From positions 4,031 to 68,030 of the forward strand of contig JBIKWZ010000006.1 of the NCBI GenBank assembly GCA_044356035.1: a stretch of 64,000 nucleotides of DNA, read 5' to 3'. Below the pieces are notes generated by a model. That model saw nothing but the letters and a program-made list of their open reading frames with translations. It made no database searches and had not been told where the DNA came from. The stretch comes from Cyanobium sp. (lineage in GTDB: Bacteria > Cyanobacteriota > Cyanobacteriia > PCC-6307 > Cyanobiaceae). Of this stretch, positions 32,652 through 63,845 are shown one piece after another. A program made the position numbers and the translations under genes. Each line of letters opens with the position of its first letter. The stretch's first letter is position 1.

Positions 32652-33295
32652 TGCAGGGCGTGAAACTGCTGATGCACCGCCGCCATCTGGGCGGCGCTCA
32701 ACACCGGTGGCTCGCCGAGTTGCAGGGCCTGCAGATACATCTGGGCCAGGGTTTCCACCTCAACGGCGATGCGCAGGGCCTGATCGAGGCTTGTGCCTAG
32801 CGTTACCTGGCCGTGCTGGGCCAGCAGGCAGGCCAGCCGATCCTCCAGGGCAGCCACCGCCAGGGCTGAGAGCTCGGCGGTGCCAAAGGTGGCGTAACCG
32901 GCGCAGCGGATGTCATCGCCGCCGGCCACGGCGGTCATGTAATGAAAGGGGGGGATAGGGCGGCCATGGCAGGCAAGGGCCGTGGCATGAATCGAGTGGC
33001 AATGCAGCACCGCCTGGATCTCAGGCCGGCTGGCGAGGAGATCGGCGTGCAGCCGCCACTCGGAGGATGGCCGCCGCTGGCCAGCTGCCGCCGCGAGGGG
33101 CTCGCCGCTGCTGGCAATCGCCACCAGATCCTGCGGCTCCATCTGCTCGAAGGGCAGGGAGCTGGGCGTGATCAGCAGGCCACCAGGGATACGCACCGAT
33201 AGGTTGCCGGAGGTGCCCTGATTGAGCCCGCTGGCGTTTAGGCGCCGAGACACCTCCACGAGCTGCTGGCGCAGCACCTGCTCAGTCATTGCCAT
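32633..33295 (-). CDS. Class II aldolase/adducin family protein (MtnB- or fuculose-phosphate-aldolase-like)
   Basis: GLNQGTSGNLSVRI...LITPSSLPFEQMEPQDLV...SSEWRLHADL...AVLHCHSIHATAL (His metal ligands). Overlaps mtnA by 14 nt. Confidence 0.85.
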   Translation of the reverse strand: MAMTEQVLRQQLVEVSRRLNASGLNQGTSGNLSVRIPGGLLITPSSLPFEQMEPQDLVAIASSGEPLAAAAGQRRPSSEWRLHADLLASRPEIQAVLHCHSIHATALACHGRPIPPFHYMTAVAGGDDIRCAGYATFGTAELSALAVAALEDRLACLLAQHGQVTLGTSLDQALRIAVEVETLAQMYLQALQLGEPPVLSAAQMAAVHQQFHALHYGAGA

Positions 33296-34382: not shown

Positions 34383-34561
34383 GGCTGCGGAAGTGGGCCG
34401 AGTCTTCTCCTGATCATCTCTGGGGGTGGGGAACTGGGGCAGATCAGCGCCAGGACCGGCAGCAGAACGATTCCGGAAAGGACTGTCTCGCATTCCGTAC
34501 AGCTTGTACTGCAGATTTCCGGAGCCTGTCGCCAACCCGACCACACACCCCTGCCACCTGC

Positions 34562-35086
34562 TCAAATCAGCCGGTAGCCAAACCAATCCGGCACCTGGCT
34601 CTGGCTAAGGCCCTCAAGGTGGGGCTCCAGCTGCACATGCCAGCGCTCGCCGCCCAGCAGCTCAAGCTGCTCGATCGCCAGGCAGTCATCTACGGCCACC
34701 AGATCATCCTTGTGCTGCTGCAGGGCGCCGCGCAGCCACTGGCGCTTAGCCGCCGCCTTGGCCGCCTGGGACGAGCAGGCCACCACCAGGCCGAAATGGT
34801 GCAGCTCCGCCAGCGAATCGGGGCGGTAGGCGCCCAGGTTCACAAACCACAGACGCTCGGGCCGGGGCGCGGCCGGCTCTCGCCCGAGGCTCACCGCGAA
34901 GCCATCCACCGCTCGCACCGCCATGTAGCTGTCCAGGTGCAGGCCCTCACGCCTCCCGAACCACTGCCGCCGCAACTCTGGAAGCGCCGCTTCGATCGTG
35001 GCGCCGGCCACGAAGCGCACGTCGTGGAGCTCGACGTGACAGCCCGGTGCACGGCCACCCAGCACCGCCAGAAACAAGGTGGACAA
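34562..35086 (-). CDS. DUF1543 domain protein (from memory)
   Basis: LFLAVLGGRAPGCHVELHDVRFV... and a second LWFVNLGAYRPDSLAELHHFGLVV module. This is the last high-GC gene before island 2. Confidence 0.6.
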   Translation of the reverse strand: MSTLFLAVLGGRAPGCHVELHDVRFVAGATIEAALPELRRQWFGRREGLHLDSYMAVRAVDGFAVSLGREPAAPRPERLWFVNLGAYRPDSLAELHHFGLVVACSSQAAKAAAKRQWLRGALQQHKDDLVAVDDCLAIEQLELLGGERWHVQLEPHLEGLSQSQVPDWFGYRLI

Positions 35087-35272
35087 GCGAAGTTAACAGG
35101 GCAGGCGATACTAAAACAAAGGCAACACATTCAAGGTAAAAGAATAGCCAGAGGGAAGGGCGACTAGAGTCAGTATTCGGCAGCAGATTACACTTTACAA
35201 CAAAAACCAAGGCCAAAACCGAGACTCCCGCTCCATCAGCCAAGCTTGGCAGAAAGTAGACAGACAAGGTGG

Positions 35273-36277
35273 ATGAATCAGTCGAACGTATTAGAGCTTA
35301 GGGGGCTATACAGAAAGTTTGGATCCCTGGTTGCAGTAGACCATCTCGATCTCAGCTTGTACAAAGGGGAGTTTTTCACGCTCCTGGGCGCATCTGGTTG
35401 CGGAAAAACGACAATCATGCGCCTGATTGCCGGATTCGACCAGCCCGATGGCGGCCGCGTGGTGCTTAACGGCAGGGATGTCACAAACCTGCCTCCCCAA
35501 AAGCGCAATGTCCACACGATGTTTCAACAATATGCTTTGTTCCCACACTTAAGTATTTGGGACAACGTCGCGTTTGGGCCTCGTTCACAGGGAAAGGACA
35601 ACGCAGAAACCCGCCGTAAGGTAGGAGAAATGCTGGAGATTATTGGACTGACAGAGAAAGCAAGGTTTTTCCCCAAGGATCTCTCAGGTGGCCAGCGGCA
35701 ACGGGTAGCACTGGCCAGGGCGCTGGTCAACACGCCCGCACTGTTGCTCCTTGACGAGCCGCTCGGGGCACTTGACGCCACAATGCGGCGAGGACTGCAG
35801 CTGGAATTAAAACGCATTCAGCGTGAAGTGGGGATAACATTTCTGATGGTGAGCCACGACCAAGACGAAGCCTTTTCAATGAGCGATCGCTTGGTTGTGT
35901 TAAACGCCGGGCGCATCGAACAACTGGGAACACCAAAAGAAATCTACGAAAAGTCAACAACAAGCTACGTGGCTGGATTCGCAGGCCAGGCCAATCTGTT
36001 GCCCATGGCGAGTGGCACATTGGGCATGATCAGACCAGAACGGATACGACTCAGCCAAACAGAACCCTTCGGGGAAGAAGATGGCTGGAAAGGTCATCTG
36101 ACTGCCGTGTTTTACCAAGGGGCTGACTGGCGCCTCGAACTCACGCGTGATGATGGGAAAGTGTTATTTATTCTTCTCAACGTAGGAGAAGCGCCGCCAA
36201 CACTGAAGATCGGAGACCAGTATTGGGGCAACTGGAAGCGCTCCGATCTCCATCCCATCACTGGGGAAGGAACCTAA
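35273..36277 (+). CDS. potA: Spermidine/putrescine-type ABC transporter ATP-binding protein
   Basis: Walker A LLGASGCGKTT, Q-loop, signature LSGGQRQRVALARAL, Walker B LLLLDEPLGALD, C-terminal TOBE-like domain. AAGGTGG RBS just before the ATG at 35273. Confidence 0.9.
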   Translation: MNQSNVLELRGLYRKFGSLVAVDHLDLSLYKGEFFTLLGASGCGKTTIMRLIAGFDQPDGGRVVLNGRDVTNLPPQKRNVHTMFQQYALFPHLSIWDNVAFGPRSQGKDNAETRRKVGEMLEIIGLTEKARFFPKDLSGGQRQRVALARALVNTPALLLLDEPLGALDATMRRGLQLELKRIQREVGITFLMVSHDQDEAFSMSDRLVVLNAGRIEQLGTPKEIYEKSTTSYVAGFAGQANLLPMASGTLGMIRPERIRLSQTEPFGEEDGWKGHLTAVFYQGADWRLELTRDDGKVLFILLNVGEAPPTLKIGDQYWGNWKRSDLHPITGEGT

Positions 36278-37416
36278 TGCACTCCATGGGATTCAATCGG
36301 CGTAGATTCCTCAGGCTGCTGGCTGCCAGTGGTGGCACGGTGATGCTCGGCCACGCATTAACTGGATGCGACCTGGGTAGTGGTAGGTCAAAAGCAAAAC
36401 CCTTAACGATTTCGAATTGGCCACTATTCATCGACGTTGATCAGGCAGGGTCAGTAGGAACTGTCAAACGATTTGAGCAAGCAACTGGCCTCAAAGTCGT
36501 ATATAGAGAGGACCTCAATGATCCTGATTCGTTCTTCTCACGCATCAGGATTCCTCTTGCCATGGGACAGCCATTAGAGCAAGATATCCTGATCATTCCA
36601 AACTGGCTGGCATCCCGCCTGATCCGCCTGGGCTGGCTAGACAAGCTTCCCCTCGCGAAGATACCCAACGCAAGCAATCTCGAGGTGTCATTACGCCGAC
36701 CGCTCTGGGATCCAACAGAGCAGTACACGCTACCCTGGATGGTAGGAGTTACGGGTATTGCCTATAATGTAAAAGCAACAGGCGGAGAACTCAGCTCAGT
36801 TGACGACCTGTTCGCGAAGTCGTTGCATGGGCGGGTTTCTTTTCTCTCACTTTGGCGTGACACACTCGGGTTAATGATGCTTGCCGATGGCAAGGATATC
36901 GCAAGCCCAACGTTCGAAGATGCCCAACCAGCATTACAGAGACTGAAACAAGCAAAAGCGAGTGGGCATATTCGTTCCTTCACTGGCAACGACTACCAGA
37001 AAGATCTACTCGTTGGCAATCTGGCTGCCTGTGTTGCCTGGGCTGGGGATGTGGCTCAGCTGCTAAGCGAGAATCCAGATCTGCGTTTTGTTGTCCCAGA
37101 AACAGGTGGCGTCTTAACAGCCGATGTGATGGTTATACCCCGAGACGTAGATGCAGTGGAGCAAGCTGCTGCCTGGATGAACTACGTTTACGAGCCCACC
37201 AACGCCGCAAAGATTATTGCGTCAACTCACTTTATTAGCCCTGTCAAAGGGGTTCGCCAAGTGCTGGCGGCATCCCCAGCAACGGCCGAGCTCATCAATG
37301 ACCCCTTGATGTTTCCCAATGCTGCAATGGGAAAGCGATTGCACATGCTCGGAGCCTTCAGCGATCGGGATGAAGTGGCCATCGAGAAAGAGTTCTCTCT
37401 ATTAACTGCATCATGA
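36277..37416 (+). CDS. potD: Polyamine-type periplasmic substrate-binding lipoprotein with a twin-arginine signal
   Basis: MHSMGFNRRRFLRLLAASGGTVMLGHALTGC (Tat motif plus lipobox), then PotD/PotF-like ISNWPLFID...YREDLND...IPNW...YTLPWMVGVTGIAYN. TAATG overlap with potA. Confidence 0.85.
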   Translation: MHSMGFNRRRFLRLLAASGGTVMLGHALTGCDLGSGRSKAKPLTISNWPLFIDVDQAGSVGTVKRFEQATGLKVVYREDLNDPDSFFSRIRIPLAMGQPLEQDILIIPNWLASRLIRLGWLDKLPLAKIPNASNLEVSLRRPLWDPTEQYTLPWMVGVTGIAYNVKATGGELSSVDDLFAKSLHGRVSFLSLWRDTLGLMMLADGKDIASPTFEDAQPALQRLKQAKASGHIRSFTGNDYQKDLLVGNLAACVAWAGDVAQLLSENPDLRFVVPETGGVLTADVMVIPRDVDAVEQAAAWMNYVYEPTNAAKIIASTHFISPVKGVRQVLAASPATAELINDPLMFPNAAMGKRLHMLGAFSDRDEVAIEKEFSLLTAS

Positions 37417-38288
37417 AATTACGCTTTTCTCGCCAACAATTACCCCTGCTCCTGGTTGCCCCAGGCGTAACGTGGCTGATCTTCTTTTTTGTTCTGCCGA
37501 TCATTGGACTTCTCAAGCAGTCGTGGTCAAGACCAATCAGCCGATTCGGCCTCGAAACGACGCTGAGCGCCAATCCCGACAATTATTACGATGCCTTGTC
37601 GCTGGCGACACCTCTGTTTCTGCGTTCCATGGGGATTGCAGCACTGGCCACAGTCATTGGCCTGATCATTGGGTTTCCTCTGGCATGGTGGATTGTCCGA
37701 AGAGGAGGCAGATGGAAACCCTTGCTCACAGGCCTGATTGTCGTTCCCTTCTTTTTCTCCTATCTCGTTCGCACCATTGCCTGGACCACCTTACTTGCAG
37801 ATAGCGGACCCCTGATGCAACTTCTGCGCACGCTGTCCCTTGGCCACGTACTGAACAGCGTTGGCGTGCTCCAGGATGGGCGCTTACTAAACACCACGGC
37901 AGCCCTGATTGCAGGCATAGCCTATAATTACCTTCCTTTTCTCGCCTTACCAATCATTGCTAGCTTGGGAACGATTGACCCAATACTCCTGGAAGCCGCA
38001 GCAGACCTAGGGGCGCAGGGGCCACGAATTTTCCTCAAGGTTGTGTTTCCTCTGGCACTTCCTGGAATTATCTCAGGGAGCTTACTGACATTCATTCCCG
38101 CCATGGGTGATGTGGTGAATTCGCAATATCTTGGAGGCGTAAACGATCGCATGATTGGTAGCCTTATCGCCGATCTTGTGTTGATTCAGCAACGCTTTGA
38201 AACGGCAGCCGCCATCAGCGTCCTGCTGCTGGCAATGATAGGATTCTCCCTATTTATATACAATTACAAATTCGGCAAACTAGCCTAG
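37413..38288 (+). CDS. potB: Polyamine-type ABC transporter permease
   Basis: 6-TM permease with the EAA loop LLEAAADLGAQGPRIFLKVVFPLALPG. ATGA overlap with potD. Confidence 0.88.
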   Translation: MKLRFSRQQLPLLLVAPGVTWLIFFFVLPIIGLLKQSWSRPISRFGLETTLSANPDNYYDALSLATPLFLRSMGIAALATVIGLIIGFPLAWWIVRRGGRWKPLLTGLIVVPFFFSYLVRTIAWTTLLADSGPLMQLLRTLSLGHVLNSVGVLQDGRLLNTTAALIAGIAYNYLPFLALPIIASLGTIDPILLEAAADLGAQGPRIFLKVVFPLALPGIISGSLLTFIPAMGDVVNSQYLGGVNDRMIGSLIADLVLIQQRFETAAAISVLLLAMIGFSLFIYNYKFGKLA

Positions 38289-38302
38289 CAGGCACCACTT
38301 AA

Positions 38303-39112
38303 ATGGAAACTTTGAAACCAAGTCAAAACCGACTGCAGGCCCCCTGGCTTGCACTCTGGAGCCTCGCTGTGTACGGGCTACTCTTCGCACCAGTAGCAGT
38401 CATTGTACTGTTCAGCTTCAATGCTCCTCAAAGCCGTTTCAACCTTGTTTGGCATAGCTTTACCCTAAAAAATTGGCTGAATCCGTTTGCAGATCCAACA
38501 CTCGCACAGGCCTTCTTTACAAGTTTAGGGTTGGCCCTGCTATCCACACTGCTCTGCATTCTGCTGGCGCTGCCGATGACTATGGCGTTGGAACGCTTTC
38601 GCATCAGAGGAGCCTCAGGCATGGAGTTGCTGCTGGTGCTTCCCTTAACGCTGCCTGAAGTGGTATTGGGGGCATCACTATTATTGTTGTTCGTGCAGTT
38701 GCGCGTACCACCCGGTCCACTAGCCCTGGTCATTGCCCATACCTTGTTTTGCCTGAGCTACACGGCAATGGCACTCAAAGCGCGACTTGGAGGCCATGAC
38801 TGGTCGCTAGAAGAAGCTGCTGCTGATCTAGGTGCCTCGCCATTCCGAATATTCTCAAAAATCACCTTACCGAGACTTGCACCTGGGCTGCTTTCAGCGG
38901 GTCTGCTCAGCCTGTCGATCTCGATGGATGATTATGTCGTTTCTTCAATTACAGCAGGATCAGTCATTACCTTTCCAATTCGAATTGCGGGAGCCTTCCA
39001 AAGAGAAATATCGCCCCAGATTCACGTCTTATCGACCATTGTATTGATCTGCAGCTTGATTGCACTGGTGCTTAGCTGCCGAGAATCAAAAGCGGCTGTC
39101 AAGTTGAGTTAA
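38303..39112 (+). CDS. potC: Polyamine-type ABC transporter permease
   Basis: 6-TM permease with the EAA loop LEEAAADLGASPFRIFSKITLPRLAPG. Confidence 0.88.
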   Translation: METLKPSQNRLQAPWLALWSLAVYGLLFAPVAVIVLFSFNAPQSRFNLVWHSFTLKNWLNPFADPTLAQAFFTSLGLALLSTLLCILLALPMTMALERFRIRGASGMELLLVLPLTLPEVVLGASLLLLFVQLRVPPGPLALVIAHTLFCLSYTAMALKARLGGHDWSLEEAAADLGASPFRIFSKITLPRLAPGLLSAGLLSLSISMDDYVVSSITAGSVITFPIRIAGAFQREISPQIHVLSTIVLICSLIALVLSCRESKAAVKLS

Positions 39113-39127
39113 AGATTCATAGAGACA

Positions 39128-40600
39128 ATGGTACCAGCCGTCAAAGATTCAAGGAATCACAATGCGAACACCAACCTCGACGCGATCGTCGTCGGTGCAG
39201 GGCTCTCCGGCTTGATTGCCGCAAGGAGACTGCAAGCCAAAGGCAAGCGCGTGGTGGTGCTTGAGGCCCAACACCATGTTGGTGGTCGAATGGTCAGCTA
39301 CACCACGAGCAACGGCAGTGTGGTGGATTTGGGCGGGCAATGGGGGGGAAGCAGCCACCACGGCTTCAGCGCACTGCTCATAGAGCTCGGAATCGAAAGC
39401 TACCCCAGCTACTACAAGGGCAAGGGGGTGTTCCATTGGCAGGGGAAGCGGCAGGAAGCCCCGCTGGCCAACGACTTCGCTGAAAGCTTCTTGTTCTTTC
39501 AGCCAGAGGCCCTCGCGCTGCCCAGGGAAGAGATGGAGGCTGCGCGCTTGCTCCTGAACGAATTGTCGAAGCTCGTGGCCCGGGTGGATCGGCAACAGCC
39601 CTGGCTCACGGACGGGGCTGAACAGTTGGATCGGCTCAGCGTTGCTGCGTGGGCGGCGGAGTACACCAGCATTCCATTGGCGCAACTGCCACTCCAATGG
39701 CTCTGCCGCGTCGGCGGATCCGGTGGGTTTGAACCCTGGGAAAGCTCAATCCTGCATCTGGCCTGGACACAAGCAGTGGCACCACAGGCGGAAACACCCG
39801 AGGCATGGCTGGTTGAGGGCAGTGCTGGCTCTGTGACCCAGCGCCTGGCACAGGATCTGGAGCAGCAAGCACCCGGTTGTCTGCTGCTGGGGCAGGTTGT
39901 GACAGAGATCGAACAACGCGGTCTGCTGGTGGAGGTCAAAACAAGCAGTGGGTTTGCTCAGCAAGCCAGCCTCGTGGTCGTGGCGGTTCCGCCGCCACAA
40001 CGCCAGGCAATTGCCTTTACCCCGCCCTTGGCTCCACCACATCAGGCGCTGCTGCAGCGGTCCCCGATGGGAGGCATGACGAAAATTCTGGCCACCTATG
40101 CCCATGCGTTCTGGCGTGAGCAGGGCCTCAACGGGCTGGGCATTGGCGATCGACCAGCCCTGCAGCTCACCGCCGACAGCGGCGGCCCTGAGCATCAACC
40201 AGCCGTGCTGGCTAGCTTCATCGCAGGTGAAAAAGCGATCCAGCTGGGAGCTCTTGCCGACGCCGAGCGCCACAAAATGATCCTTGACGACCTGGTCTCC
40301 TACTGGGGGCCGCAAGCATCCGAACCACTCGATCTTGTGGAGAAAGCCTGGAACGGCGAAACGTTCACCGGTGGCGCCTTCACAAGCTTTCTGATCCCTG
40401 GCACATGGACCAGCGTCGGCAGGCTGGCGGCGGGAGATCAGGGCGGGCCGGGCCCTGCAGACCATGGACGAGTGCTTTGGGCTGGCTCAGAAGTCTCGCC
40501 CCGCTGGCCTGGCTACTTCGAGGGCGCCATTGAGGCCGGCGAGCGGGCTGCCGCACGCAGCCACGCCGTGCTGGAGGCAACAGATGGAACCCATACATAA
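39128..40600 (+). CDS. Cytoplasmic FAD-dependent amine oxidase (MAO / putrescine-oxidase family), paralogue 1
   Basis: Dinucleotide fold DAIVVGAGLSGLIAARRLQAKGKRVVVLEAQHHVGGR, no signal peptide, C-terminal VLWAGSEVSPRWPGYFEGAIEAG. Starts 15 nt after potC, so probably in the same operon. Confidence 0.85.
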   Translation: MVPAVKDSRNHNANTNLDAIVVGAGLSGLIAARRLQAKGKRVVVLEAQHHVGGRMVSYTTSNGSVVDLGGQWGGSSHHGFSALLIELGIESYPSYYKGKGVFHWQGKRQEAPLANDFAESFLFFQPEALALPREEMEAARLLLNELSKLVARVDRQQPWLTDGAEQLDRLSVAAWAAEYTSIPLAQLPLQWLCRVGGSGGFEPWESSILHLAWTQAVAPQAETPEAWLVEGSAGSVTQRLAQDLEQQAPGCLLLGQVVTEIEQRGLLVEVKTSSGFAQQASLVVVAVPPPQRQAIAFTPPLAPPHQALLQRSPMGGMTKILATYAHAFWREQGLNGLGIGDRPALQLTADSGGPEHQPAVLASFIAGEKAIQLGALADAERHKMILDDLVSYWGPQASEPLDLVEKAWNGETFTGGAFTSFLIPGTWTSVGRLAAGDQGGPGPADHGRVLWAGSEVSPRWPGYFEGAIEAGERAAARSHAVLEATDGTHT

Positions 40601-40772
40601 AGCTGCAAGCAGAGTGCCCCTCGGGCGAATTAGATGATCAGCAATTGGGAGTTCAAAGACATATCTTGATCAATGAGTCATCCCTAACCCTTCTGCGGAG
40701 GTGGGGCGGTTGTGACGCCTGAAAAGAACCTCCGGCCCGCACAGACCAGCACCACATCACAACTCTCCATAA

Positions 40773-41972
40773 ATGAAGGCGAAACGACAGCCCCCTCGAA
40801 CCATGCGATCACGGACTAGTAATAGCGTGCTGCACAAGCTGCCGCCCAGCAGTAAAAGAATCGTGGTACTGGTGTTGAGCAGCCTGCTGTGCCTGGCCGC
40901 AGTGCTTCTGCCAACTAGTGGCTTACTACTCAGCAAAGCTCAGGGGCTCTCCGATGTGCAGACCGGCAGTAAAACCGTGGAACTGGCCCCGGACGCCAAA
41001 ACGGAGGGCATGGAAGTAAATGTGGGCATCCAGCTAAAGAACATCTACGACCTCAACCTAGCAAGCCAAAGCTTTCTAGCCGAAGGCTGGTATTGGCTAA
41101 GCTGGAATGATGAGGTTCAGGCGGTACTAGAGAGCCTAAAGATTGAGCCAACCCAGATGATTGAATTTCCCAATGAAATCGAAGCGGGCCAATTCTCTGT
41201 AAATGAGGTACTCCCCGAAGAAGTGAAGGTCAAATCCGGAACCCCCCATTCACTGTATGTAAAATTTTCAGGCAAGTTCTACATAGACGAAGTGGCGCAG
41301 CGCCTAGCACCATTTGATCCGCAGCGATTAAAATTGGCACTGGAAGTGAAGCTATCAAGCCTTACAGAAGGCCCAAATCAAATCAACCTAGTGCCAATTT
41401 CGATCGAACAACTGCCTATAGCTGGGGAGTTTTCTTCCGTGAACGGCTTTATTCTCACTGACACCGAATGGACTCGTCAGATGGCCAACTATATTGAACC
41501 ACTTGCCGGCAAGAATCAGACCAGATCCAGACAAATTGTGCGCTACAGCCGCGCAACAGCTATTTTGACATACTCACCAGACCCGGTCACAGTGTTCCTC
41601 AAGTGGCTGCTACCACTCATTGCAGTAATGGGAATCGTGATACTCTCACCATCCATTGACGGCACATTAGGCGATGTGCGCCTGGCAATACCATCTGCAG
41701 CCCTGCTGACCCTGGTGGTGTTGCATGACGGTTACAAAGAGAATTTCCCTCCAGCTCCTTACCTAACCTACCTCGATGAAATATACACCTATAGCTACAT
41801 AGCTTGCTTCGTGATCTTCTTGCTTTTCCTAGTGGGAACCAATACTCATAGCCGTGGGAGCGAGCAAGAACGTGAAGCAATCAGCAATAAAATTAATAGG
41901 CTCGATTTAATCGTACAGGTAAGCATGATTTCCGGGTTCGTGATCGTAGCCAGCGTGGGCTGGTTCAGCTGA
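40773..41972 (+). CDS. Prokaryotic pentameric ligand-gated ion channel (Cys-loop receptor / GLIC-ELIC family) homologue
   Basis: N-terminal signal anchor. A ~210-aa beta-rich periplasmic domain starts VNVGIQLKNIYDLNLASQSFLAEGWYWLSWND and contains APFDPQRLKL. Four TM helices follow (FLKWLLPLIAVMGIVIL; RLAIPSAALLTLVVL; PPAPYLTYLDEIYTYSYIACFVIFLLFLV; LIVQVSMISGFVIVASVGW). Order and motifs match my recollection of GLIC. Start could be the second ATG at 40803. Confidence 0.75.
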   Translation: MKAKRQPPRTMRSRTSNSVLHKLPPSSKRIVVLVLSSLLCLAAVLLPTSGLLLSKAQGLSDVQTGSKTVELAPDAKTEGMEVNVGIQLKNIYDLNLASQSFLAEGWYWLSWNDEVQAVLESLKIEPTQMIEFPNEIEAGQFSVNEVLPEEVKVKSGTPHSLYVKFSGKFYIDEVAQRLAPFDPQRLKLALEVKLSSLTEGPNQINLVPISIEQLPIAGEFSSVNGFILTDTEWTRQMANYIEPLAGKNQTRSRQIVRYSRATAILTYSPDPVTVFLKWLLPLIAVMGIVILSPSIDGTLGDVRLAIPSAALLTLVVLHDGYKENFPPAPYLTYLDEIYTYSYIACFVIFLLFLVGTNTHSRGSEQEREAISNKINRLDLIVQVSMISGFVIVASVGWFS

Positions 41973-42413
41973 AGAAAGCGACGAAGACCAAAGATGGGCG
42001 GATCACCAATGACGCAATCAACGCCATGGTGTTAGAGCAGAAACCTGCTTGCAGGATATCGGCAGGCCCGCAAGATTCACTTGCAATGGCGGTGTGAGCT
42101 ACATGCAACCGTTGGTTTCTCACCAACTAAAGATGTATACCACGTAGCTGCCCCAGCCACTCTGAAATCCAGGCCAATCGATGAGGAAGAGGCGGACAAT
42201 CAGCAATTATGGATCATCCTTGACAACCAAAACGCAACCCCCATACGGGCGTTGCTTTCAAGCCAAACAATTAATGAATAAACAGGAAAATCTATCCCGA
42301 GACCAGGGCAACCAACCAAAGCGAGAAGGTTTTATAAAAAGAATGAACCAATAAAAACATCCGAGAGCAAGGTATTAAAGTAGTTTACTGAACAGAGTAG
42401 CAGGAGTAGTCGC

Positions 42414-43916
42414 ATGCCTTTTTCACGTCGGCTGTTCCTAGGAGCCAGTTCCGCAGCAGTAGTGTGAACAACACTTGGGTCGCCTGCCTTCTCCGAGAAT
42501 GAGCCCAGACTTGAGACATCAAGAGCGAAAGGAAGATTCAACTCTTCAAGCGACGTCGTGATAGTCGGAGGTGGGATCTCAGGTCTAATTGCAGCAGTTG
42601 AACTTGAGAAGAAAGGCAATACAACAACGGTGCTCGAAGCCAGTTCTCGCTTCGGTGGACGATGTGTACGCCAAAAAACAATCCAGAACTGGTGGGTGGA
42701 CCTTGGTGGGCAATGGATGGGCAAAACACACCATCTCTTTAAGGACCTAGCCAAGGAGCCTGACATCAAAACATTTGACAGCTTCTACGATGGCGAAACA
42801 GTCTTTATCTGGAATGGGAAAAGGATCACTGCCCCGATGGACAGTGATTGGGCAAGCTCCTTCATCTACGTCCCCTTTGACAGGGTCCCGGTTGCCGAAG
42901 AAGACCGAAAAGCCGCCCGCCAACTGCATCAAGAATTCCTGGAACTCACGAAGTCTGTCGACAACGAACGGCCCTGGCAAAGCCCACAGGCTAGAGAGCT
43001 CGATACGCAGACCATCGAAACATGGCTAAACAGCCGAACCAACTCTGAGCTTACACACTATATTTTCAAGTGGTATACGCGCGTAGGTGGCTCTGGCGGA
43101 TTTGAGCCAGGTGAATCATCGATGCTTCACCTGGCTCAAACACAAAAAGCATGTCCGTAAGGAGAAACCCCTGAGCAGTGTTTGCTGTACGGGGCAGCAG
43201 GTCAGGTGCCTGAGCTTTTGGCCGATAGAATTAAAGGATTGATTCGAACCAATGCCGCCGCACAAGCTATAACTAGCAGGGAAGATGGATGCCTGGTTAA
43301 AGCTGCGGATGGAACATCACACGGTTGTCGAGCTGTAGTGGTTGCCGTACCACCACCCTTCCGTTCTCGAATCGCCTTCGAACCGAGTTTACCACATCAA
43401 ATATCAGGCCTTATACAACTTTCGCCAATGGGGTCAATGTTCAAGATCATGACCGTATACAAATCAGCCTGGTGGCAACAACGGGGCCTTAATGGTCTCG
43501 GCCAAGGAAATTTGCAAACTGTAGAGCTCACTGCTGACTCTTCACCTCCTTCAGGGAATCCCGGGGTACTTGCTTCATTTGTAGCCGCCGATAAAATCGT
43601 CAAACTTGTGTTGCTATCCGCCAAGCAACGGCGTGAAGCAATTCTTGCCAATCTCGTTCAATACTGGGGGCCAGAAGCGGGGACTCCAGATGATTACATC
43701 GAAATCAACTGGGCTGATGCAGCGTGGACAACCGAAGCCTTCACGTCCTATATGACGACAGGAGCCTGGACCAGCTTTGGTCCTGCATGGCGAGAACCAG
43801 TCGGACGCATTGTATGGGCTGGGACAGAGTCGTCATCAACATGGGCGGGCTTATACGAAGATGCAATTCAAGCGGGGCTTGACTCCGCGACTTCAATTGC
43901 ATCACTTCTATACTGA
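42414..43916 (+). pseudogene. Tat-signal FAD amine oxidase, paralogue 2, disrupted by two in-frame stop codons
   Basis: One reading frame throughout: MPFSRRLFLGASSAAVV, TGA (42465-42467), ...DVVIVGGGISGLIAAVELEKKGNTTTVLEASSRFGGR...RVGGSGGFEPGESSMLHLAQTQKACP, TAA (43158-43160), GETPEQCLLYGAAGQV...IVWAGTESSSTWAGLYEDAIQAG. Collinear with paralogue 1 across the TAA (paralogue 1 reads APQAETPEAWLVEGSAGSV). Confidence 0.8.
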
Positions 43917-43952
43917 TAAGGCATGAGAAACAGCATCAATATGACAGACAAT

Positions 43953-45404
43953 TCAGGCTAGATTCAAGCGTTTAGCGATCCGACCAGCCAAGACGGCTCC
44001 ACTGTGCAGTGCACCCTCCATGTAGCCAGTGAACAATAAACTGGCATACTCTCCAGCAAAAAAGAGTTTATCCTGAATGCCTTCCTCCAGCCGTGGGTAG
44101 ATGCTAGTCACTTCACCTAAAGATGGGCAGCTATAGCCGCAAGCTGTCCAGCGCTCTTCGGGCCAAGCCATAAACAATTGTTTCCGCACTGCACTTCCAT
44201 AATGTGGATAAATCGCATTGATCCATGTCGTCATCTGAGCATCACGCTGCCTCTTCGGAATTTGCAAACACTGCTGTGCAGCGGCTCCTCCTGAAAAAAC
44301 GGTGAAGGCGCCAGCGTCTTGGGGTGTAAGCCGTTGGCCATCACTCGCATCCCAGGTTTCACCGATCGCTGTCGATGTCAGAGCGTTAGGTCCAAGGTCT
44401 GAATCCTGCCAGAATGGTCTGTCAACAGCACTGATGTATTTAATGGCGGGCCCAGCAAAGGGCCTCAATTCAGCAGCCAATTGAGGCTGGATCTCCATTT
44501 GTGCCCAAGTGGATGGAGGCGCCGTGAACACCACCAGATCGCCACGGAACTGCTGGCCGTCAGCAGTGGTAAGAAGAACGCCATTGTGTTGCAGAGAAAC
44601 TCGCTCAACGGGCGTCCGCAAGGCAATGCGGTCACTACCGATAGCAGAAGCGAGTTTAGTAGCAAGAGCTTGATTTCCCTCAGCACAGCGATAGATCTCG
44701 GATTCTGTCCAAAAGGCCTCAATGCCGCCCCCAGCAATCGTGCTCAAAATCCCCAGATAACTGGCCTCAGAGGGGTTGGTCGCAGAATCATTAGCAAGCA
44801 ATGCCAAGGCCGCGGCGCGAACATCGGGCTCAACCGACCAATGGCTGGCAACATCAGCAAGCGAACGTTGATCAAGCCGTGCAGCATCGGCTGTGAGCCA
44901 GGGGCGATCGCGGTTGATGAACCTCGCATCGCTATTCATCAAGGCTAAAGCCTTATACATCTCTGCGAAAAGACGGTTAGCTGCTTGGTTAGTATAAGAT
45001 TTGCCATTGATCAGCAAGGGTGAAGCAAGATCATCATCATCACTGACATCTCGCATTGTGAGTCCAAATTCCTTGGCATAGGCCATCCAAGTGGGGTGAT
45101 TGCCACCAACTAATTCAGCCCCAACTTCAATCAGCTGACCGGGAATAACATTACCAAGTGTAAGGACACGACCACCTAAGCGGTTGCGGGCTTCTAGAAC
45201 CAATACATCCGCTCCGGCGCGGTGCAGTTGATAAGCGCAGCTCAAGCCAGCGAAACCAGCACCGATGATGAATACTCTAGGGCGCAAAATAGACTGGGCA
45301 GTGGTTTGGCGCTGGGGCAACATCAGCGCTGCTCCCGCCGCTAGCGAGGCTTGGAGAAAACGGCGACGACTAATAGCACTGGGGACCGCTCCCACACGGC
45401 GCAT
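43953..45404 (-). CDS. Tat-signal (periplasmic) FAD amine / L-amino-acid oxidase, paralogue 3
   Basis: SRRRFLQASLAAGAALMLP (twin-arginine), RVFIIGAGFAGLSCAYQLHRAGADVLVLEARNRLGGR, C-terminal LFFAGEYASLLFTGYMEGALHSG. Start set at the ATG at 45404. Confidence 0.85.
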   Translation of the reverse strand: MRRVGAVPSAISRRRFLQASLAAGAALMLPQRQTTAQSILRPRVFIIGAGFAGLSCAYQLHRAGADVLVLEARNRLGGRVLTLGNVIPGQLIEVGAELVGGNHPTWMAYAKEFGLTMRDVSDDDDLASPLLINGKSYTNQAANRLFAEMYKALALMNSDARFINRDRPWLTADAARLDQRSLADVASHWSVEPDVRAAALALLANDSATNPSEASYLGILSTIAGGGIEAFWTESEIYRCAEGNQALATKLASAIGSDRIALRTPVERVSLQHNGVLLTTADGQQFRGDLVVFTAPPSTWAQMEIQPQLAAELRPFAGPAIKYISAVDRPFWQDSDLGPNALTSTAIGETWDASDGQRLTPQDAGAFTVFSGGAAAQQCLQIPKRQRDAQMTTWINAIYPHYGSAVRKQLFMAWPEERWTACGYSCPSLGEVTSIYPRLEEGIQDKLFFAGEYASLLFTGYMEGALHSGAVLAGRIAKRLNLA

Positions 45405-45776
45405 CAACTGAGTGATCGCCCTAGTTTTCAAAGTGGGAATGCTTTTTCCATAAACCTTTATAGCGGGGCCCCGAGGAAAATGCAAGCAATGCGGCGTCAG
45501 CCGCCAAAGCAGAAGCAGTACCTGGCCAACAAGATATTTACAATAAAACTAATCGCCTAAGCGTTGCGACAATCAGCCAGCAGAATCAGGCCGTTGCAGG
45601 AACACGATACGTTGGTTTCAGTCGAGCGGACTATTTCGATTGGGACGGTCTCAACATCCTGGGCGGCGATACAGTGAACATCCTGTTAGCGCCACCCTAG
45701 CTTCGAGCATTTGTCAGTCAGTCCTGCTGTACCCAAGCCTAAAAATTATCGCAGATCAGTTCTCCAAACAAGCACC

Positions 45777-46396
45777 ATGGATTTCTTCGAACGGCAATGG
45801 AGTTCTTTCCGAGCGATCGTGGACCACGACCTCATAGAGCATCATCGTTCGGTAGCTGACTGGACCGCAGAGGAGTTGAAGCGCTGGCTATCCAAGCGTC
45901 CCGCATCTGCATCCGCACCGTCAATGGTGGATTTTGGCTGTGGTGATCTGGCCCTGCTTGCCCCCATGGTTCTCGGCCCGGTGCCCTACACCACTCACTA
46001 GCGAGAGGGAGACCTGCACCAGTGGGCCGGCACCAGGCCGGACATCCTGCATTCCGAATTTGACTTCACCACCTAGACAGTGATCAGAAATTACAAATCC
46101 CAAAGGGCGAACGTCGTCGCGTGAAGCCTGGTGGAATTTTCACCTGGGCAGATGTATTCTGTGAGCCAGGTGCATCACTAACTGGTTATGCCGATCGCTA
46201 CGCAGAACGCATTAAACATAGTTGGTCGATACTTGATCTAGAACAACGCATGCATGTGGGGCCCATCAACGGCAGTTCGACATCCCAGCGGAACAGCAAT
46301 TCATTGAAAATGCCGCAAGATCACAGGCTGCACTGGGAGAGGGCATGGCAAGGGCAACATCAAGCAGAAGCTGTGGCGGTATTAAAACCAACCTGA
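45777..46396 (+). pseudogene. Fragmented class I SAM-dependent methyltransferase
   Basis: MDFFERQW...MVDFGCGDLALLAP (motif I) ends at a TAG at 46001. After ~120 nt with further stops, VKPGGIFTWADVF (post-II motif) resumes in another ORF (46121..46396). A third frame carries a plausible continuation ...QRQFDIPAEQQFIENAARSQAALGEG. At least two disruptions. Confidence 0.6.
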
Positions 46397-46457
46397 GCCT
46401 ACTGCGGCGTAGATACAACTCAAGGCCACTGATAGTCGTTTATCCAGCAGAGCAGCT

Positions 46458-47948
46458 TTAGAATCTAAAACTGACCTTGATCAAGCAGCCCAGCTGGTTG
46501 AAACTCTCGCCAGCAGGGGTATCCGCACCTAACGGACGATAGAGATAAAATATGGCTGGAGTCACGGCAATATTATCAGTCAACTGGATGCTGTACCACC
46601 ACTCCCACACATAGTTACCATCATTAGGTGTATCAGAGCCGTAAAGGCTGGTAGCAAAGGTTGCTTGACCAGCAGCCATTCCCAGCGTATTGCCTTTAGC
46701 AAAGGCATCTGACCATTGCAGACCCACAGCCCACGACTGACTAAGTGAAACGAGGCCGAGATCATTCACATCACTTGAGTAGGTGGTTCTGTTAATACCC
46801 CAACCAACACTGATCGATGGGAGCCAGCCAGATTGAGCAGGTTGCCAATAGCCACTGAGCCCAAAGGCTGAGGTATAGCCCGAATTTCTGAAGCTGGCGA
46901 GCGTAAAATTGGTGGCATATAGGATTAGGCCTTGACCATTCTGAACAGCAGAGTAAATTGCAGCGATTGCCCATTGATCAGCGCTATAGCCAATTTGCAC
47001 AGTGCTAGTACTACCCGAATCCTTAGTGGCGATCCCGCCCTGACCCGCCTCACTCCCGCCTCCATTAGCAGCAACATAATTAACACTAATCGAAAAGCGA
47101 TTTTTCTTCCACCACGCACCCGCACCCACACCGAGATTTAAATTATTGGCACCTATTGAACCCGCAGAAGTCATAAGGTCCAGAATAGAGTCCGATGGAT
47201 ACAGGCTGGGCCAAACCGCCAACATATTATCTTGTTCAACCCGCGGGCCAATGGTGAACGTGAAATCACCAATCGGGACCTGATAATAAAGTCGATTCAC
47301 TGAAAATCGATCGGCTCTTGACGCCTCTTGGAAAGCCACCTCTAACTGCGATAGAGCACTAGGTCCAGCCCCACCGAAGCTATTGCGTGTTGAGTCAAAA
47401 TTTCCAGCCCTAAGTCTTATATGAAGCAAATCACGACCGTTAAAGCTAGTATCCAGCATCAGCCTCGTATCGTAGTTAAAAGTAGTCGCCCCATATTCAC
47501 GACTGCTACGATCCACGAGATCCGATGCGCTACCCTCGAAAGAGCTGCCACCCAAAACGAAAGTGCTTTGCCCCGACAGTGTCGTTGTTGGCGTGAATTG
47601 CATAACTTCCAGTGCAGCAACCCGCGTTTCAATATTATCCACCATGGCATTAGTGTAAGCCAGGTGTATTTCATCACTAATATCTAATACGTTGACGAGA
47701 AAGCTCTCGTCAACGGCCTTGTAAGACTTCGCTTCAAACGTAACGCCCTGATGAGCGTGCCTGGGAGCAACCTCCTCCTCTGGGCAGACGTAGGGGAATG
47801 AAAATGTGCAACCACTGGGTTGATTCTCAGTCGGCCCAGGCGCTGCCGAGGCACTACCGTCGCATGCGATATGCGAAGACAGGCTCAACGCAAATAAAGA
47901 AGCATGAAACCTCTTCAATGCCCCATATAAACTCCGATAGCTATGCAT
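46458..47948 (-). CDS. Cyanobacterial OprB-family porin
   Basis: Signal peptide, coiled segment NIETRVAALEVMQF, then TTTLSGQSTFVLGG...FNYDTRLMLDTSFNGRDLLHIRLRAGNF and a beta-strand pattern ending ...KVSFRF. Starts 4 nt after the upstream ATPase gene. Confidence 0.8.
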   Translation of the reverse strand: MHSYRSLYGALKRFHASLFALSLSSHIACDGSASAAPGPTENQPSGCTFSFPYVCPEEEVAPRHAHQGVTFEAKSYKAVDESFLVNVLDISDEIHLAYTNAMVDNIETRVAALEVMQFTPTTTLSGQSTFVLGGSSFEGSASDLVDRSSREYGATTFNYDTRLMLDTSFNGRDLLHIRLRAGNFDSTRNSFGGAGPSALSQLEVAFQEASRADRFSVNRLYYQVPIGDFTFTIGPRVEQDNMLAVWPSLYPSDSILDLMTSAGSIGANNLNLGVGAGAWWKKNRFSISVNYVAANGGGSEAGQGGIATKDSGSTSTVQIGYSADQWAIAAIYSAVQNGQGLILYATNFTLASFRNSGYTSAFGLSGYWQPAQSGWLPSISVGWGINRTTYSSDVNDLGLVSLSQSWAVGLQWSDAFAKGNTLGMAAGQATFATSLYGSDTPNDGNYVWEWWYSIQLTDNIAVTPAIFYLYRPLGADTPAGESFNQLGCLIKVSFRF

Positions 47949-47952
47949 AGCA

Positions 47953-48708
47953 TTATTGGCGACTCAGGAAGTTACGGAGACGCTCACTTCTGGGATTATT
48001 AAATACTACTACGGGGTCCCCCTGCTCTTCAATCAGGCCATTATTGAAAAACAACACCTGGTTGGACACGTCGCGCGCAAAGCGCATTTCGTGAGTTACA
48101 ACCAACATCGTCATGCCACTTTCAGCCAACACTTTCATCACCTGCAGCACTTCACCCACAAGCTCAGGATCAAGAGCACTAGTAGGTTCATCAAAAAGCA
48201 TCACGGCGGGATTCATGCAGAGACTACGCGCAATGGCCACCCGTTGCTTTTGCCCACCCGAAAGCTGACTGGGATAAGAATCTGCACGATTCAACAGGCC
48301 GACCAGGGACAAATGGTGCTCGGCAAGTTTTTGACACTCTTCAAGCTGTAATCCCAACACCTGTCGAGGTGCGAGTACGAGATTTTCTATGACTGTAAGA
48401 TGCGGAAATAGGTTAAATTGTTGAAACACCATCCCCACGCTCATCCGAAGCTGACGGAGCTGTTTCCATTGAAGAGGAGTCCCTGGCACATTCTGCCCCA
48501 TCACCCACAATTCGCCGCCATGGAAGCTCTCCAGCCGATTGAGGCAGCGAAGGAACGTGCTTTTGCCGCAGCCGGATGGACCAATAATTGAAACCACGTC
48601 ACCGGCATGAACCGTGGCACTCACACCTTGTAGCACCTTGATGTCGCCATAGCTTTTGTGTAAATCCCTGCACTGAAGCACAGGTTCAGGTCCAAGGGGG
48701 GTCATCAT
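47953..48708 (-). CDS. Polar amino-acid ABC transporter ATP-binding protein (GlnQ/BgtA-like)
   Basis: Walker [29 protein letters not shown], Walker [14 protein letters not shown]-loop VVTHEM. Start set at the ATG at 48708. Confidence 0.92.
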
Positions 48709-48758
48709 GGGACTTCCGACTGTCTTCAGGGGATATGGCGCACCGGCCAAAACTCAGT

Positions 48759-50237
48759 ATGCGGCAAATGGCCAGCGTGTGGCGAAGACTTGCCCTTCTT
48801 GTCATTGGCCTGATGGCAGTGAGCCTTCAGAGCGCACTTTGGGCCATGCCAGCACAAGCCTGGAAAGTAGGTACCGATCCTACATTCCCGCCATTTGAGT
48901 TCCGCGACACATCGACTGGTGCAATTACAGGCTTTGACATAGAGCTAATCGAGGCGATTGGCAAGCAGTCTGGACACTCCATAGAATGGATACCCTTGCC
49001 GTTCGACGGCCTGATTCCAGCCCTGCAATCCCGCAGTGTCGACGCTGCAATCAGCGCAATGACCGTCACACCAGAACGGGCTCGTGCTGTCGACTTTAGT
49101 CGTCCTTATTTCAAAGCGGGGCAGGCGATTGTTGTGCGCACCAATGGCCCCTCCTTCAGCACTCTTGCTGAGCTAAAAGGGCGCCGCATCGCAGTTCAGA
49201 TCGGCACCACTGGCGCTCAAGAAGCAGGCAAAATAACTGATGCCCAGGTCATTAGTTTTGACTCTACCCCCACGGCGCTACAGGAGCTCGCCAACGGCAA
49301 TGCCGATGCTGTTGTCAGTGATGTTCCCGCTATCTTGTATGCGATTGATCAAGCCAAACTCACTGGTCTGCGAATCTCCGGAGAACACCTCAGCACAGAA
49401 TATTATGGCATTGCACTCCCCACCAATTCCCCAATAGCTCCAGCTATTAATCAGGCACTCAATGCGCTGATTGAAGATGGTCAATATGCAACGCTCTATG
49501 AAAGATGGTTTGGCGCAGAGCCACCAGCGCTTCCAGATCGTGCTCCCAGCCTGACGCGCCCTGCTTCTCCGTTAGCGGGACTCGACCTCAACATGTTGTT
49601 GAGCAACTTGCTTAAGGGCGCTGGCGTGACCCTGCTGCTCACCGTGCTTTCTTTCAGTTTCGGACTGTTAGGCGGCACAGCACTCGCCATGGTGCTGCAA
49701 GTCCCTTGGGCATTCGCCCACCGACTCTGCCGTATCTATATCGATTTTTTCCGTGGCACGCCGATGCTTGTGCAGTTGTTTCTTATTTATTTTGGACTCC
49801 CAGCACTGTTGCAAAGCATGGAGCTCCCCTTCACAATCAACAGGTTGGCTGCAGCCGTTATAGCGCTGAGCCTCAATGTTGCTGCCTATCTGGCTGAGAC
49901 GCTGCGCAGCGGAATTGAATCGATAGACAGGGGGCAATGGGAGGCCGCTGATGCATTGGGCTTCAGCCCAGTTGAACGCATGCGTTGCATAGTAGCACCG
50001 CAGGCCATTCGACGGATTTTACCACCACTTGCCAACGAATTCATTACTTTAATCAAAGACACAAGCCTCGCAGCTGTCATCGGATTTGATGAGCTTTTCA
50101 GACAGGGCCAACTGATGGTGGCCACCTCTTACCGTGCATTCGAAATCTACATTGCCGTTGCACTGGTATATCTCGTCATGACCACTACGGCCTCAATTCT
50201 CTTTAAGCGCTTGGAAGCCCGTATGCACATCCCTTGA
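48759..50237 (+). CDS. Fused periplasmic-binding plus permease subunit of a polar/basic amino-acid ABC transporter (BgtB/GlnHP-like)
   Basis: Signal peptide, SBP domain (KVGTDPTFPPFEF...GFDIELI...DAAISAMTVTPERA...), then a permease with FFRGTPMLVQLFLIYFGLP and the EAA loop QWEAADALGFSPVERMRCIVAPQA. Start set at the ATG at 48759 to avoid overlap with the divergent ATPase gene. Confidence 0.88.
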   Translation: MRQMASVWRRLALLVIGLMAVSLQSALWAMPAQAWKVGTDPTFPPFEFRDTSTGAITGFDIELIEAIGKQSGHSIEWIPLPFDGLIPALQSRSVDAAISAMTVTPERARAVDFSRPYFKAGQAIVVRTNGPSFSTLAELKGRRIAVQIGTTGAQEAGKITDAQVISFDSTPTALQELANGNADAVVSDVPAILYAIDQAKLTGLRISGEHLSTEYYGIALPTNSPIAPAINQALNALIEDGQYATLYERWFGAEPPALPDRAPSLTRPASPLAGLDLNMLLSNLLKGAGVTLLLTVLSFSFGLLGGTALAMVLQVPWAFAHRLCRIYIDFFRGTPMLVQLFLIYFGLPALLQSMELPFTINRLAAAVIALSLNVAAYLAETLRSGIESIDRGQWEAADALGFSPVERMRCIVAPQAIRRILPPLANEFITLIKDTSLAAVIGFDELFRQGQLMVATSYRAFEIYIAVALVYLVMTTTASILFKRLEARMHIP

Positions 50238-50284
50238 GTAGCAGGGCATTCAGAAACTGAAAATGCACTCGATCAAGCCAGCTC

Positions 50285-53534: not shown

Positions 53535-53591
53535 AGCAGGTAAGGAAAGGCAGGGAAGGGGGAACGGACAGACAGAACAGATCGGAGCGGC

Positions 53592-61017: not shown

Positions 61018-61308
61018 GTAGGTGCTGGAGTGGCTTCTGTGATGGCTACTGAAAGCAGAGAGCTTTATGCGGGTTCTGCATAAACCAAACCAAAGCGATT
61101 GCACCGCAACGCTTAGGCGACCCCATAAGAAGCGCCGGCGGACGCCGCTACAGGTTTTCTGCGGGATCCACGTGCTTCCTGTACACTTTAAAAAGTACAC
61201 ATAAAAACGCAGCTCAACATTGTGCTTTAATTAGCATCGCCCTTAGCCAGTGAGCCACCTCGAACCGCTCCACCGCCAAATTAGAGATTCCTTAAAAATT
61301 AGACCATT

Positions 61309-63756: not shown

Positions 63757-63845
63757 AAGCTCAAATATCTCTATTGATATTCTTTAAGCATTATAAGACA
63801 TTGCTGCACATAAGTCAACTTGACAAAATAGCAAAATAGCAGTAG

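Follow-up and report, generated by a model that had tools for sequence, protein, structure and literature searches.

A mosaic low-GC island between a DUF1543 gene and sufS in Cyanobium sp. and its possible role in the use of organic amines and basic amino acids

Freshwater picocyanobacteria use arginine and lysine, although most of them are without Bgt, the sole known transporter for basic amino acids; periplasmic or extracellular oxidation was raised as an explanation for this use, with no candidate genes named, and in picocyanobacteria Bgt itself belongs to the accessory traits, about 23% of the freshwater strains having it (PMC11851481). AoxA carries a motif for twin-arginine translocation (Tat), resembles monoamine oxidases (MAO), contains flavin adenine dinucleotide (FAD), is partly periplasmic and is required for growth on arginine (PMC2652061). 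Its substrate order is Arg>Lys>Orn>His; both AoxA (about 54 kDa) and AoxB are FAD enzymes with N-terminal twin-arginine motifs, the MAO-like Slr0782 is without this motif, and all three release NH4+ and support the use of organic nitrogen (PMC2652061, PMC2242806). One pentameric ligand-gated ion channel (pLGIC), ELIC, is opened by putrescine and other primary amines, and its gene adjoins an amino-acid decarboxylase gene (PMC3119659). The present analysis concerns a stretch of 64,000 nucleotides, here called the window (Cyanobium sp., GenBank assembly GCA_044356035.1, contig JBIKWZ010000006.1, positions 4,031 to 68,030). It contains a low-GC island at 35087-50284, between a DUF1543 gene at the left edge and sufS at the right edge, with a polyamine-type (Pot) importer, a Bgt-type importer, an outer-membrane porin, a pLGIC and three genes of the flavin amine-oxidase family (AO1, the pseudogene AO2ψ, and AO3). 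The block would appear to be a composite island, assembled at a recombination hot-spot, for the harvest of nitrogen from organic amines and basic amino acids; we consider this reading, which is based on sequence, moderately probable.

The GC content of the island is 0.525, compared with 0.68-0.70 in three genes of the left flank and 0.65-0.66 in sufS and sufD. In 1-kb windows the values are 0.68-0.70 at 30-35 kb, 0.48-0.61 at 35-50 kb and 0.61-0.65 past 50 kb. GC content at third codon positions (GC3) is 0.47-0.57 in the genes of the island, 0.81-0.83 in the left flank (aldolase, mtnA and DUF1543 genes; the mtnA product matches TIGR00512 above the cut-off) and 0.79 in sufS; AO1 lies between island and flanks, with GC 0.62 and GC3 0.68. 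A preliminary description of the window had reported such a low-GC block between the two core genes, with heterogeneous composition and an oxidase 1 richer in GC than its neighbours. Both features are borne out by the profiles, and each of the genes which it listed is present, as seen with Pfam and NCBIfam and, for the channel, by other means (see below). The genes are as follows.

34562..35086, minus strand: DUF1543 gene, core, left boundary (PF07566, E 2.5e-39; GC3 0.83)
35273..36277, plus strand: potA-type ATPase of an ATP-binding cassette (ABC) importer (ABC_tran + TOBE_2; GC3 0.57)
36286..37416, plus strand: periplasmic binding protein of the PotD/PotF family (SBP_bac_8)
37413..38288, plus strand: potB-type permease (BPD_transp_1)
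38303..39112, plus strand: potC-type permease (BPD_transp_1)
39128..40600, plus strand: AO1, flavin amine-oxidase-family enzyme (PF01593, E 1.2e-59)
40803..41972, plus strand: divergent pLGIC (sequence, profile and structure matches to ELIC/GLIC)
42414..43916, plus strand: AO2ψ, Tat-signal flavin amine oxidase pseudogene (two in-frame stops)
43953..45404, minus strand: AO3, Tat-signal flavin amine oxidase (PF01593, E 1.9e-52)
45777..46396, plus strand: S-adenosylmethionine (SAM)-methyltransferase pseudogene, frameshifted (translation over two frames)
46458..47948, minus strand: OprB/Som-type outer-membrane porin (PF04966, E 6.5e-10)
47953..48708, minus strand: BgtA-like polar-amino-acid ABC ATPase (ABC_tran)
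48768..50237, plus strand: BgtB-type fused binding domain and permease (SBP_bac_3 + BPD_transp_1)
50285..51622, minus strand: sufS, core, right boundary (NCBIfam SufS, TIGR01979, 538 bits, cut-off 475)

The history of the locus was followed in 80 metagenome loci anchored on sufS. As the preliminary description had asked, it could be checked whether the block is present between the DUF1543 gene and sufS in some strains only, and this is the case: in relatives the two genes are adjacent or 0.7-3 kb apart. sufS is followed directly by the DUF1543 gene in L105, L120, L126, L128 and L131; a methyltransferase gene alone (about 0.7 kb) lies between them in L089, L094, L098, L129 and L147; and an AO1-type oxidase, usually together with the methyltransferase, occupies the gap in L132, L173/174, L175/176 and L109/110. 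AO1 and the methyltransferase pseudogene thus occupy slots which are conserved across lineages, the AO1 allele of the window being a divergent one. Since the slots are conserved, the presence of these two genes is not explained by acquisition of the island, and the earlier view that every gene points to one theme is weakened. By the same comparison the block did not arise by a single insertion but is built, mosaic-like, on two conserved slots, with three added modules: potABCD between the DUF1543 gene and AO1; the pLGIC gene, AO2ψ and AO3 between AO1 and the methyltransferase; and bgtA-porin/bgtB between the methyltransferase and sufS.

Between the window and L132, nucleotide identity is 98.5% along the left flank, where similarity ends at 35077, near the start of the DUF1543 gene; for the oxidase gene it is only 69.5%, and for sufS 87%. 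The oxidase of L132 is of native composition (GC3 0.83). This pattern points to allelic replacement of the whole tract by homologous recombination, the donor being a divergent picocyanobacterium of lower GC, and does not fit site-specific integration; recombination between homologous flanks is the likelier route. Flexible islands that carry genes for nutrient uptake are a familiar feature of marine and freshwater picocyanobacteria; as in these, a low-GC, strain-variable block for nutrient acquisition is found here at a fixed site between conserved core genes. The present island differs from them in keeping two conserved slots (AO1-type oxidase, methyltransferase) inside, and in mobility signatures: no tRNA was found nearby, no integrase, transposase or other mobility domain in the open reading frames of the island, and no convincing flanking repeat, the search for direct and inverted repeats yielding short matches at chance level only. 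In freshwater picocyanobacteria of the Cyanobium type, the gap between the DUF1543 gene and sufS is best explained as a recombination hot-spot ("flexible genomic island"), into which lower-GC DNA would have entered stepwise in this lineage. Other picocyanobacteria are the probable donors, in view of the picocyanobacterial type of both porin and pLGIC. Stepwise acquisition and ongoing decay, which had been suggested from the window, are supported by the gap contents in relatives, by AO2ψ and by the loss of AO1 in a near relative, L085.

The oxidases can be assigned, from profile and structure-database matches, to the flavoenzyme family of MAO and putrescine oxidase (PuO). Scores with PF01593 (cut-off 19.8 bits) were 203 bits for AO1, 179.5 for AO3, and 67 and 121 for the two halves of AO2ψ; the GxGxxG motif for FAD is visible in all three. 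The best PDB matches of AO1 were MAO 8p84 (4e-53) and putrescine oxidase 2yg7 (9e-43), and those of AO3 were MAO, cyclohexylamine oxidase and putrescine oxidase; homologues of AO3 with about 50% identity, named puo or monoamine oxidase, occur in Hyphomicrobiales. L-Amino-acid oxidases in the PDB gave far lower and partial matches, which covered the FAD-binding N-terminus of AO3, and the N-terminus and a C-terminal segment of AO1. Unrelated flavoenzymes, such as the phytoene desaturase-like enzymes which the preliminary description had named as possible evidence against its proposal, were looked for and ruled out: the models for CrtI, HpnE and PPOX cover just about 50-90 residues of the FAD N-terminus, far below their cut-offs, and the full-length PDB matches are the amine oxidases given above. 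With PuO of Rhodococcus erythropolis and the MAO family, AO1 has full-length similarity and the GxGxxG FAD fold in common. It differs from PuO by low identity; also, two of the three island copies have Tat signals, whereas PuO is cytoplasmic.

The Tat leader of AO3 (SRRRFLQASLAAGAA) contains the motif SRRRFLQ (TAT_signal 21.8 bits, cut-off 22.7), and the enzyme is predicted to be periplasmic. AO2ψ has a Tat-like N-terminus, MPFSRRLFLG (FSRRLFLGASSAA); AO1 has neither this motif nor a signal peptide and would be cytoplasmic or membrane-associated. Of the three flavin oxidases first described, including two Tat-signal paralogues, all three genes are there, two of them intact, and both Tat motifs are present; close paralogy was not confirmed, AO2ψ being 22% identical to AO3 and 42% to AO1. 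AO2ψ is thus of an AO1-like subfamily and AO3 of a separate one. The frame of AO2ψ is interrupted by TGA at 42465 and TAA at 43158. Since the gene is otherwise collinear with an intact homologue of 504 aa in L171 (60% identity; 63% by tblastn), its inactivation is recent; an assembly error was ruled out by the same split in an independent metagenome contig, L081. A near-perfect palindrome of 20+20 nt at 43101-43140 falls in a part of AO2ψ whose coding sequence is conserved (FEPGESSMLHLA), so that an inserted element is improbable; related 16-mers are present at 45573 and 46162. In L085 the AO1 gene (L085:4214-5700) contains nonsense codons and two indels (+1 and -1) which inactivate it, while the pot and pLGIC genes are intact. 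Oxidases have been lost repeatedly, AO2 in the window and AO1 in L085.

From the sequences, the substrates may be amines or, as with AoxA and Slr0782, basic L-amino acids. It is quite possible, if somewhat short of probable, that the oxidases are basic-L-amino-acid oxidases or dehydrogenases of the AoxA/AoxB/Slr0782 type; the island would then serve mainly for arginine/lysine use, with entry through the porin, AoxA-like oxidation in the periplasm and uptake by Bgt, and pot would be an unrelated neighbour. The occurrence of Tat motifs on AO3 and AO2ψ would agree with AoxA and AoxB of Synechococcus elongatus PCC 6301/7942 (about 50-54 kDa; AoxA partly periplasmic), and the lack of one on AO1 with the MAO-like Slr0782 of Synechocystis PCC 6803, as these enzymes have been described (PMC2652061, PMC2242806). 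Several homologues of AO1, which are widespread in Cyanobium and related genera, carry the name "L-amino acid dehydrogenase" of the Joint Genome Institute (JGI), and the Bgt-like binding domain matches Arg/Gln binders. However, the solved structures closest to the island enzymes are amine oxidases; AO1 is situated directly downstream of the polyamine-type importer, and an AO3-type gene occurs with pot in L169. To our knowledge, an aoxA gene beside a polyamine-type importer and a pLGIC gene has not been described.

The four co-oriented pot genes (35273-39112; gaps of -4 to 14 bp) have the four-component organisation of PotABCD and PotFGHI of Escherichia coli. Among the 24 PDB matches of the PotD-like protein at E<=0.001, 22 were binders of polyamines or putrescine, including all of those above E 1e-15; they comprised Lmo0810, PotF, SpuD/E and PotD (E 1e-23 to 1e-15). 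The components differ from the E. coli systems in their sub-equivalog scores with NCBIfam models: 347.6 bits for PotA (cut-off 482), nearly equalled by PhnT2, a model for aminoethylphosphonate; 158.6 for PotB (348) and 167.6 for PotC (326), which were the best models for the two permeases; and 83 for PotF (636) with the binding protein. The ligand in the island could be another amine. Between the window and L085, dN/dS, the ratio of nonsynonymous to synonymous substitution rates, is 0.09 for potA and 0.03-0.17 for the pot genes overall; for the channel it is 0.18 (ectodomain 0.15, membrane domain 0.13). Both the pot genes and the pLGIC gene are under purifying selection.

The Bgt-type system consists of one ATPase and one fusion of a family-3 binding domain with a permease, as in Bgt of Synechocystis and Anabaena, to which it is likened by architecture. 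The porin had been described as co-oriented with the Bgt-like system; this holds for bgtA, which lies upstream of the porin gene on the minus strand at a distance of 4 bp, and not for bgtB, which is divergent from the pair across a gap of 59 bp. In this coupling of ATPase and porin genes the island differs from Bgt, for which we know of no such description. The porin reached 116 bits with the NCBIfam model por_somb (cut-off 100), and the best models for the BgtA-like ATPase were GlnQ, HisP and ArtP, all below cut-off. In the BgtB-type protein, SBP_bac_3 extends over residues 44-260 and BPD_transp_1 over residues 323-498; the best PDB match of the binding domain was the ancestral Gln/Arg binder AncQR (4e-57), followed by GlnPQ, ArtJ and GlnH. 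The methyltransferase pseudogene, a remnant of the gene present at this place in relatives, showed 35-63% identity (tblastn) to intact methyltransferases in the same position (L089, L169, L173 and others), of which those in L169 and L173 contain Methyltransf_12/25 domains.

The open reading frame of the channel comprises 399 aa; called from the second ATG, the gene encodes 389 aa. No Pfam match was obtained at E<=0.01 (no Neur_chan), and the NCBIfam model LIC scored just 17.6 bits. The assignment to the pLGIC family, proposed in the preliminary description as a GLIC/ELIC-type channel, could be substantiated by other means. Phmmer against ELIC gave E 1.5e-4 for residues 75-365, and a profile of 26 family sequences aligned with ELIC in hhalign (98.7%, E 3e-15). 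An AlphaFold2 model (mean predicted local distance difference test score, pLDDT, 81.7) has about 10 strands at 66-269, for the beta-sandwich ectodomain, and four transmembrane helices at 271-398, together with a signal or anchor helix; with Foldseek it matched GLIC (3eam, E 2.7e-16), ELIC, DeCLIC and sTeLIC at E about 1e-16, with TM-score 0.73 and probability 1.00. The Pro-loop A-P180-F181-D182 aligns to F-P-F-D of ELIC; P180 and F181, as well as P281 in M1 and L312 at 9', are invariant among the 26 sequences. From these sequence and model data the product is a member of the pLGIC family. It has the fold, the short M3-M4 loop and the P-F-D Pro-loop in common with ELIC (Dickeya/Erwinia) and GLIC (Gloeobacter), and differs from them by an identity of about 17-21%, by the missing Pfam match and by the occurrence of its family mainly in freshwater picocyanobacteria. 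At the level of clusters of 50% identity the family amounts to 124 clusters at E<=1e-30 and 608 at E<=1e-10; named members are from Cyanobium, Vulcanococcus, Synechococcus lacustris and similar freshwater picocyanobacteria.

An invariant Asp is found in the family at -2', which we take to be the site of the selectivity glutamate of GLIC, and the channel is probably cation-selective. In the profile alignment (about 21% identity), E77, E131, Y174, F187 and Y38 of ELIC have as counterparts the family's conserved residues E131, E191, Y240, Y258 and W106. In ELIC, E77 and E131 are near the amino group of the ligand (PMC3119659). Gating by a cationic amine is conceivable, since the two glutamates which contact the amine and three aromatic residues are kept. 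A further step would be to regard the channel as an ionotropic receptor for polyamines or primary amines which works together with the amine importer and the oxidases: an amine in the periplasm would open the cation channel, and membrane potential or ion content would shift in step with uptake and oxidation. We consider this improbable. If true, it would provide the first defined physiological ligand and pathway for a prokaryotic pLGIC, and a pLGIC family invisible to Pfam (the 124 clusters) would represent environmental amine sensors of freshwater picocyanobacteria.

Some of the groupings recur outside this lineage. A contig of a metagenome-assembled genome (L169) contains potCBDA (amino-acid identity 69-86%), placed in the corresponding slot, which the methyltransferase and DUF1543 genes enclose, and an AO3-type gene (71%) across the DUF1543 gene from it; both are lower in GC than their flanks. 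Intact AO2-type (60-63%) and AO3-type (62%) genes are arranged head-to-head in L171 (7114-11482) and L172, where the pair adjoins fragments of an HTH_Tnp_1 transposase and of PLDc_2; this suggests a mobile two-oxidase module. Co-conservation, which the preliminary description had left to be checked, is therefore seen for pot with AO3-type genes and for AO2-type with AO3-type genes; it is not seen for the pLGIC. These recurring pairings support the theme of nitrogen scavenging from amines or basic amino acids. Each component of the island is from a known family, and Bgt was already reported as an accessory trait; new are the recurrent pairing of pot with MAO-like oxidases carrying Tat export signals, the resolution of the hot-spot history, and the occurrence in such a cluster of a pLGIC from an unannotated picocyanobacterial family.

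As to substrates, localisation, physiological role and gating ligand, we infer the following scheme. Organic amines and basic amino acids would pass the outer membrane through the porin, and periplasmic AO3 (formerly AO2 as well) would deaminate them oxidatively to aldehyde or keto acid, NH4+ and H2O2. In a parallel route, the Pot-type and Bgt-type importers would carry amines, and glutamine and basic amino acids, inward, and AO1 would oxidise substrates in the cell. The pLGIC would be a functional, probably cation-selective channel, which might be opened by a cationic amine.

Several observations weigh against nitrogen harvest as the function of the island. All components of the Pot-type and Bgt-type systems score below the NCBIfam equivalog cut-offs, so that the resemblance is at family level only and their substrates are uncertain. 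Neither an aldehyde dehydrogenase nor a catalase or peroxidase gene for the reaction products is contained in the island. Nitrogen control is not indicated: of five matches in the window to the NtcA consensus GTAN8TAC none is within 35-50 kb, and no riboswitch or other meaningful Rfam match (gathering threshold and E<=1) was found in the island. The repeated decay of oxidases implies that they are dispensable or costly. The last three points speak against a tightly regulated operon for nitrogen acquisition. As regards the channel, F133 and N103 of ELIC correspond to L197 and Y162 in the profile alignment and are not conserved. In a survey of 80 genome loci with pLGIC relatives (24-67% identity; tblastn in 10-kb flanks), none had an oxidase, potD, potB, potC or bgtB gene within 10 kb, while several do have a match to a potA/bgtA-like ABC ATPase; the neighbours are housekeeping genes (hemB, dnaJ, mutS2, Mur ligase, class-V aminotransferase).

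A link of pLGIC and oxidase as a trait of the whole family is ruled out by this survey. The clustering with a pLGIC, which the preliminary description had put forward as part of a shared theme and as not known to have been described, does not extend beyond this lineage and a single near relative, and a precedent for it is provided by the ELIC gene and its decarboxylase neighbour. Outside the window, the order pot-AO1-pLGIC is restricted to L085 and to L081-L084, which are contigs from one and the same population (99%). L085 and the window are 96-99% identical in the pot genes and 86% in the pLGIC gene, where dS is 0.45 as against 0.04-0.13 in the adjacent pot genes; this contrast indicates a recombination mosaic inside the island, the pLGIC gene having been exchanged independently of pot. 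Attachment of the pLGIC to the gene set would thus be recent and lineage-specific. Genes of the pLGIC family were 0-20 GC points, mostly >=5 points, below the surrounding DNA in 35 of 35 loci (L001-L030, L069, L086, L088), which suggests, for genes that are low in GC even among housekeeping genes, that they are often transferred singly or have a strong compositional bias of their own. In one locus (L017:3264-6292) a relative of the pLGIC (35% identity) is followed, about 1.3 kb downstream, by a porin 55% identical to that of the island; this proximity, the sole such case in the 80 loci, may be coincidence.

These data are also the ones which could be explained by accretion at a hot-spot without functional unity; in this case the modules would have arrived and would work independently, and the pLGIC would have been carried along with no relation to amines. 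The contents of the gap differ between lineages, the relatives of the pLGIC elsewhere stand singly among core genes as low-GC islets themselves, the dS values of L085 show independent exchange, and some parts are not maintained, as is seen from the pseudogenes. Such an origin would leave unexplained, however, that pairs of pot with AO3-type and of AO2-type with AO3-type genes recur in other lineages in other arrangements, which is unlikely at random. Moreover, all recognisable functions concern nitrogenous cations or polar amino acids, and the ELIC-like amine-contact residues are kept in the pLGIC. The pot, AO1 and pLGIC genes are co-oriented with short gaps and with no predicted terminator on that strand, in a scan which yielded no more promoter and terminator sites than shuffled sequence. 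We regard accretion without unity as rather unlikely. Very unlikely would be a role of exported oxidases in H2O2 allelopathy or defence, or in polyamine detoxification or homeostasis, instead of nitrogen nutrition. In favour of such a role, secreted amino-acid oxidases can be antimicrobial via H2O2 (PMC4699246, also cited in PMC11851481), an NtcA site is missing and the repeated oxidase losses suggest a cost such as self-damage by H2O2; against it, two importers of high-affinity type and a porin adjoining the oxidases fit acquisition better than attack, and a Tat signal without a further secretion system predicts periplasmic and not extracellular enzymes.

In this island MAO-like oxidases with Tat export signals stand next to a porin and a Bgt-type importer, in modules that move from one lineage to another at a single hot-spot; concrete candidate genes for the use of basic amino acids are thereby supplied. 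For prokaryotic pLGICs, whose part in physiology is mostly obscure, the context of amine import and oxidation around a member of a well-conserved, hitherto unannotated picocyanobacterial family suggests candidate ligands.

Other parts of the window showed some further features. The sufB and sufC genes (52731-55031; GC3 0.52 and 0.65) are much poorer in GC than sufD and sufS (0.73-0.79), whereas sufB of most high-GC relatives has GC3 of 0.73-0.94; the foreign-like composition of this core gene of iron-sulphur cluster assembly is perhaps due to allelic replacement. Low-GC patches (0.47-0.50) are present also at 7000-9000, 24000-25000 and 61000-64000, where an outer-membrane beta-barrel protein, an SbmA/BacA-like ABC transporter and an RTX-repeat protein are encoded; the window therefore holds several island-like segments. 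At 32633-34586, genes for MtnA (methylthioribose-1-phosphate isomerase) and a FucA-like class II aldolase form a pair which resembles methylthioadenosine salvage of the dihydroxyacetone phosphate (DHAP)-shunt type. Methylthioadenosine is a by-product of polyamine synthesis; a tie of the pair to the neighbouring oxidase is speculative. A permuted (two-piece) cyanobacterial transfer-messenger RNA (tmRNA; RF01851, 303 bits) at 10144-10425 fits a cluster-5 picocyanobacterium.

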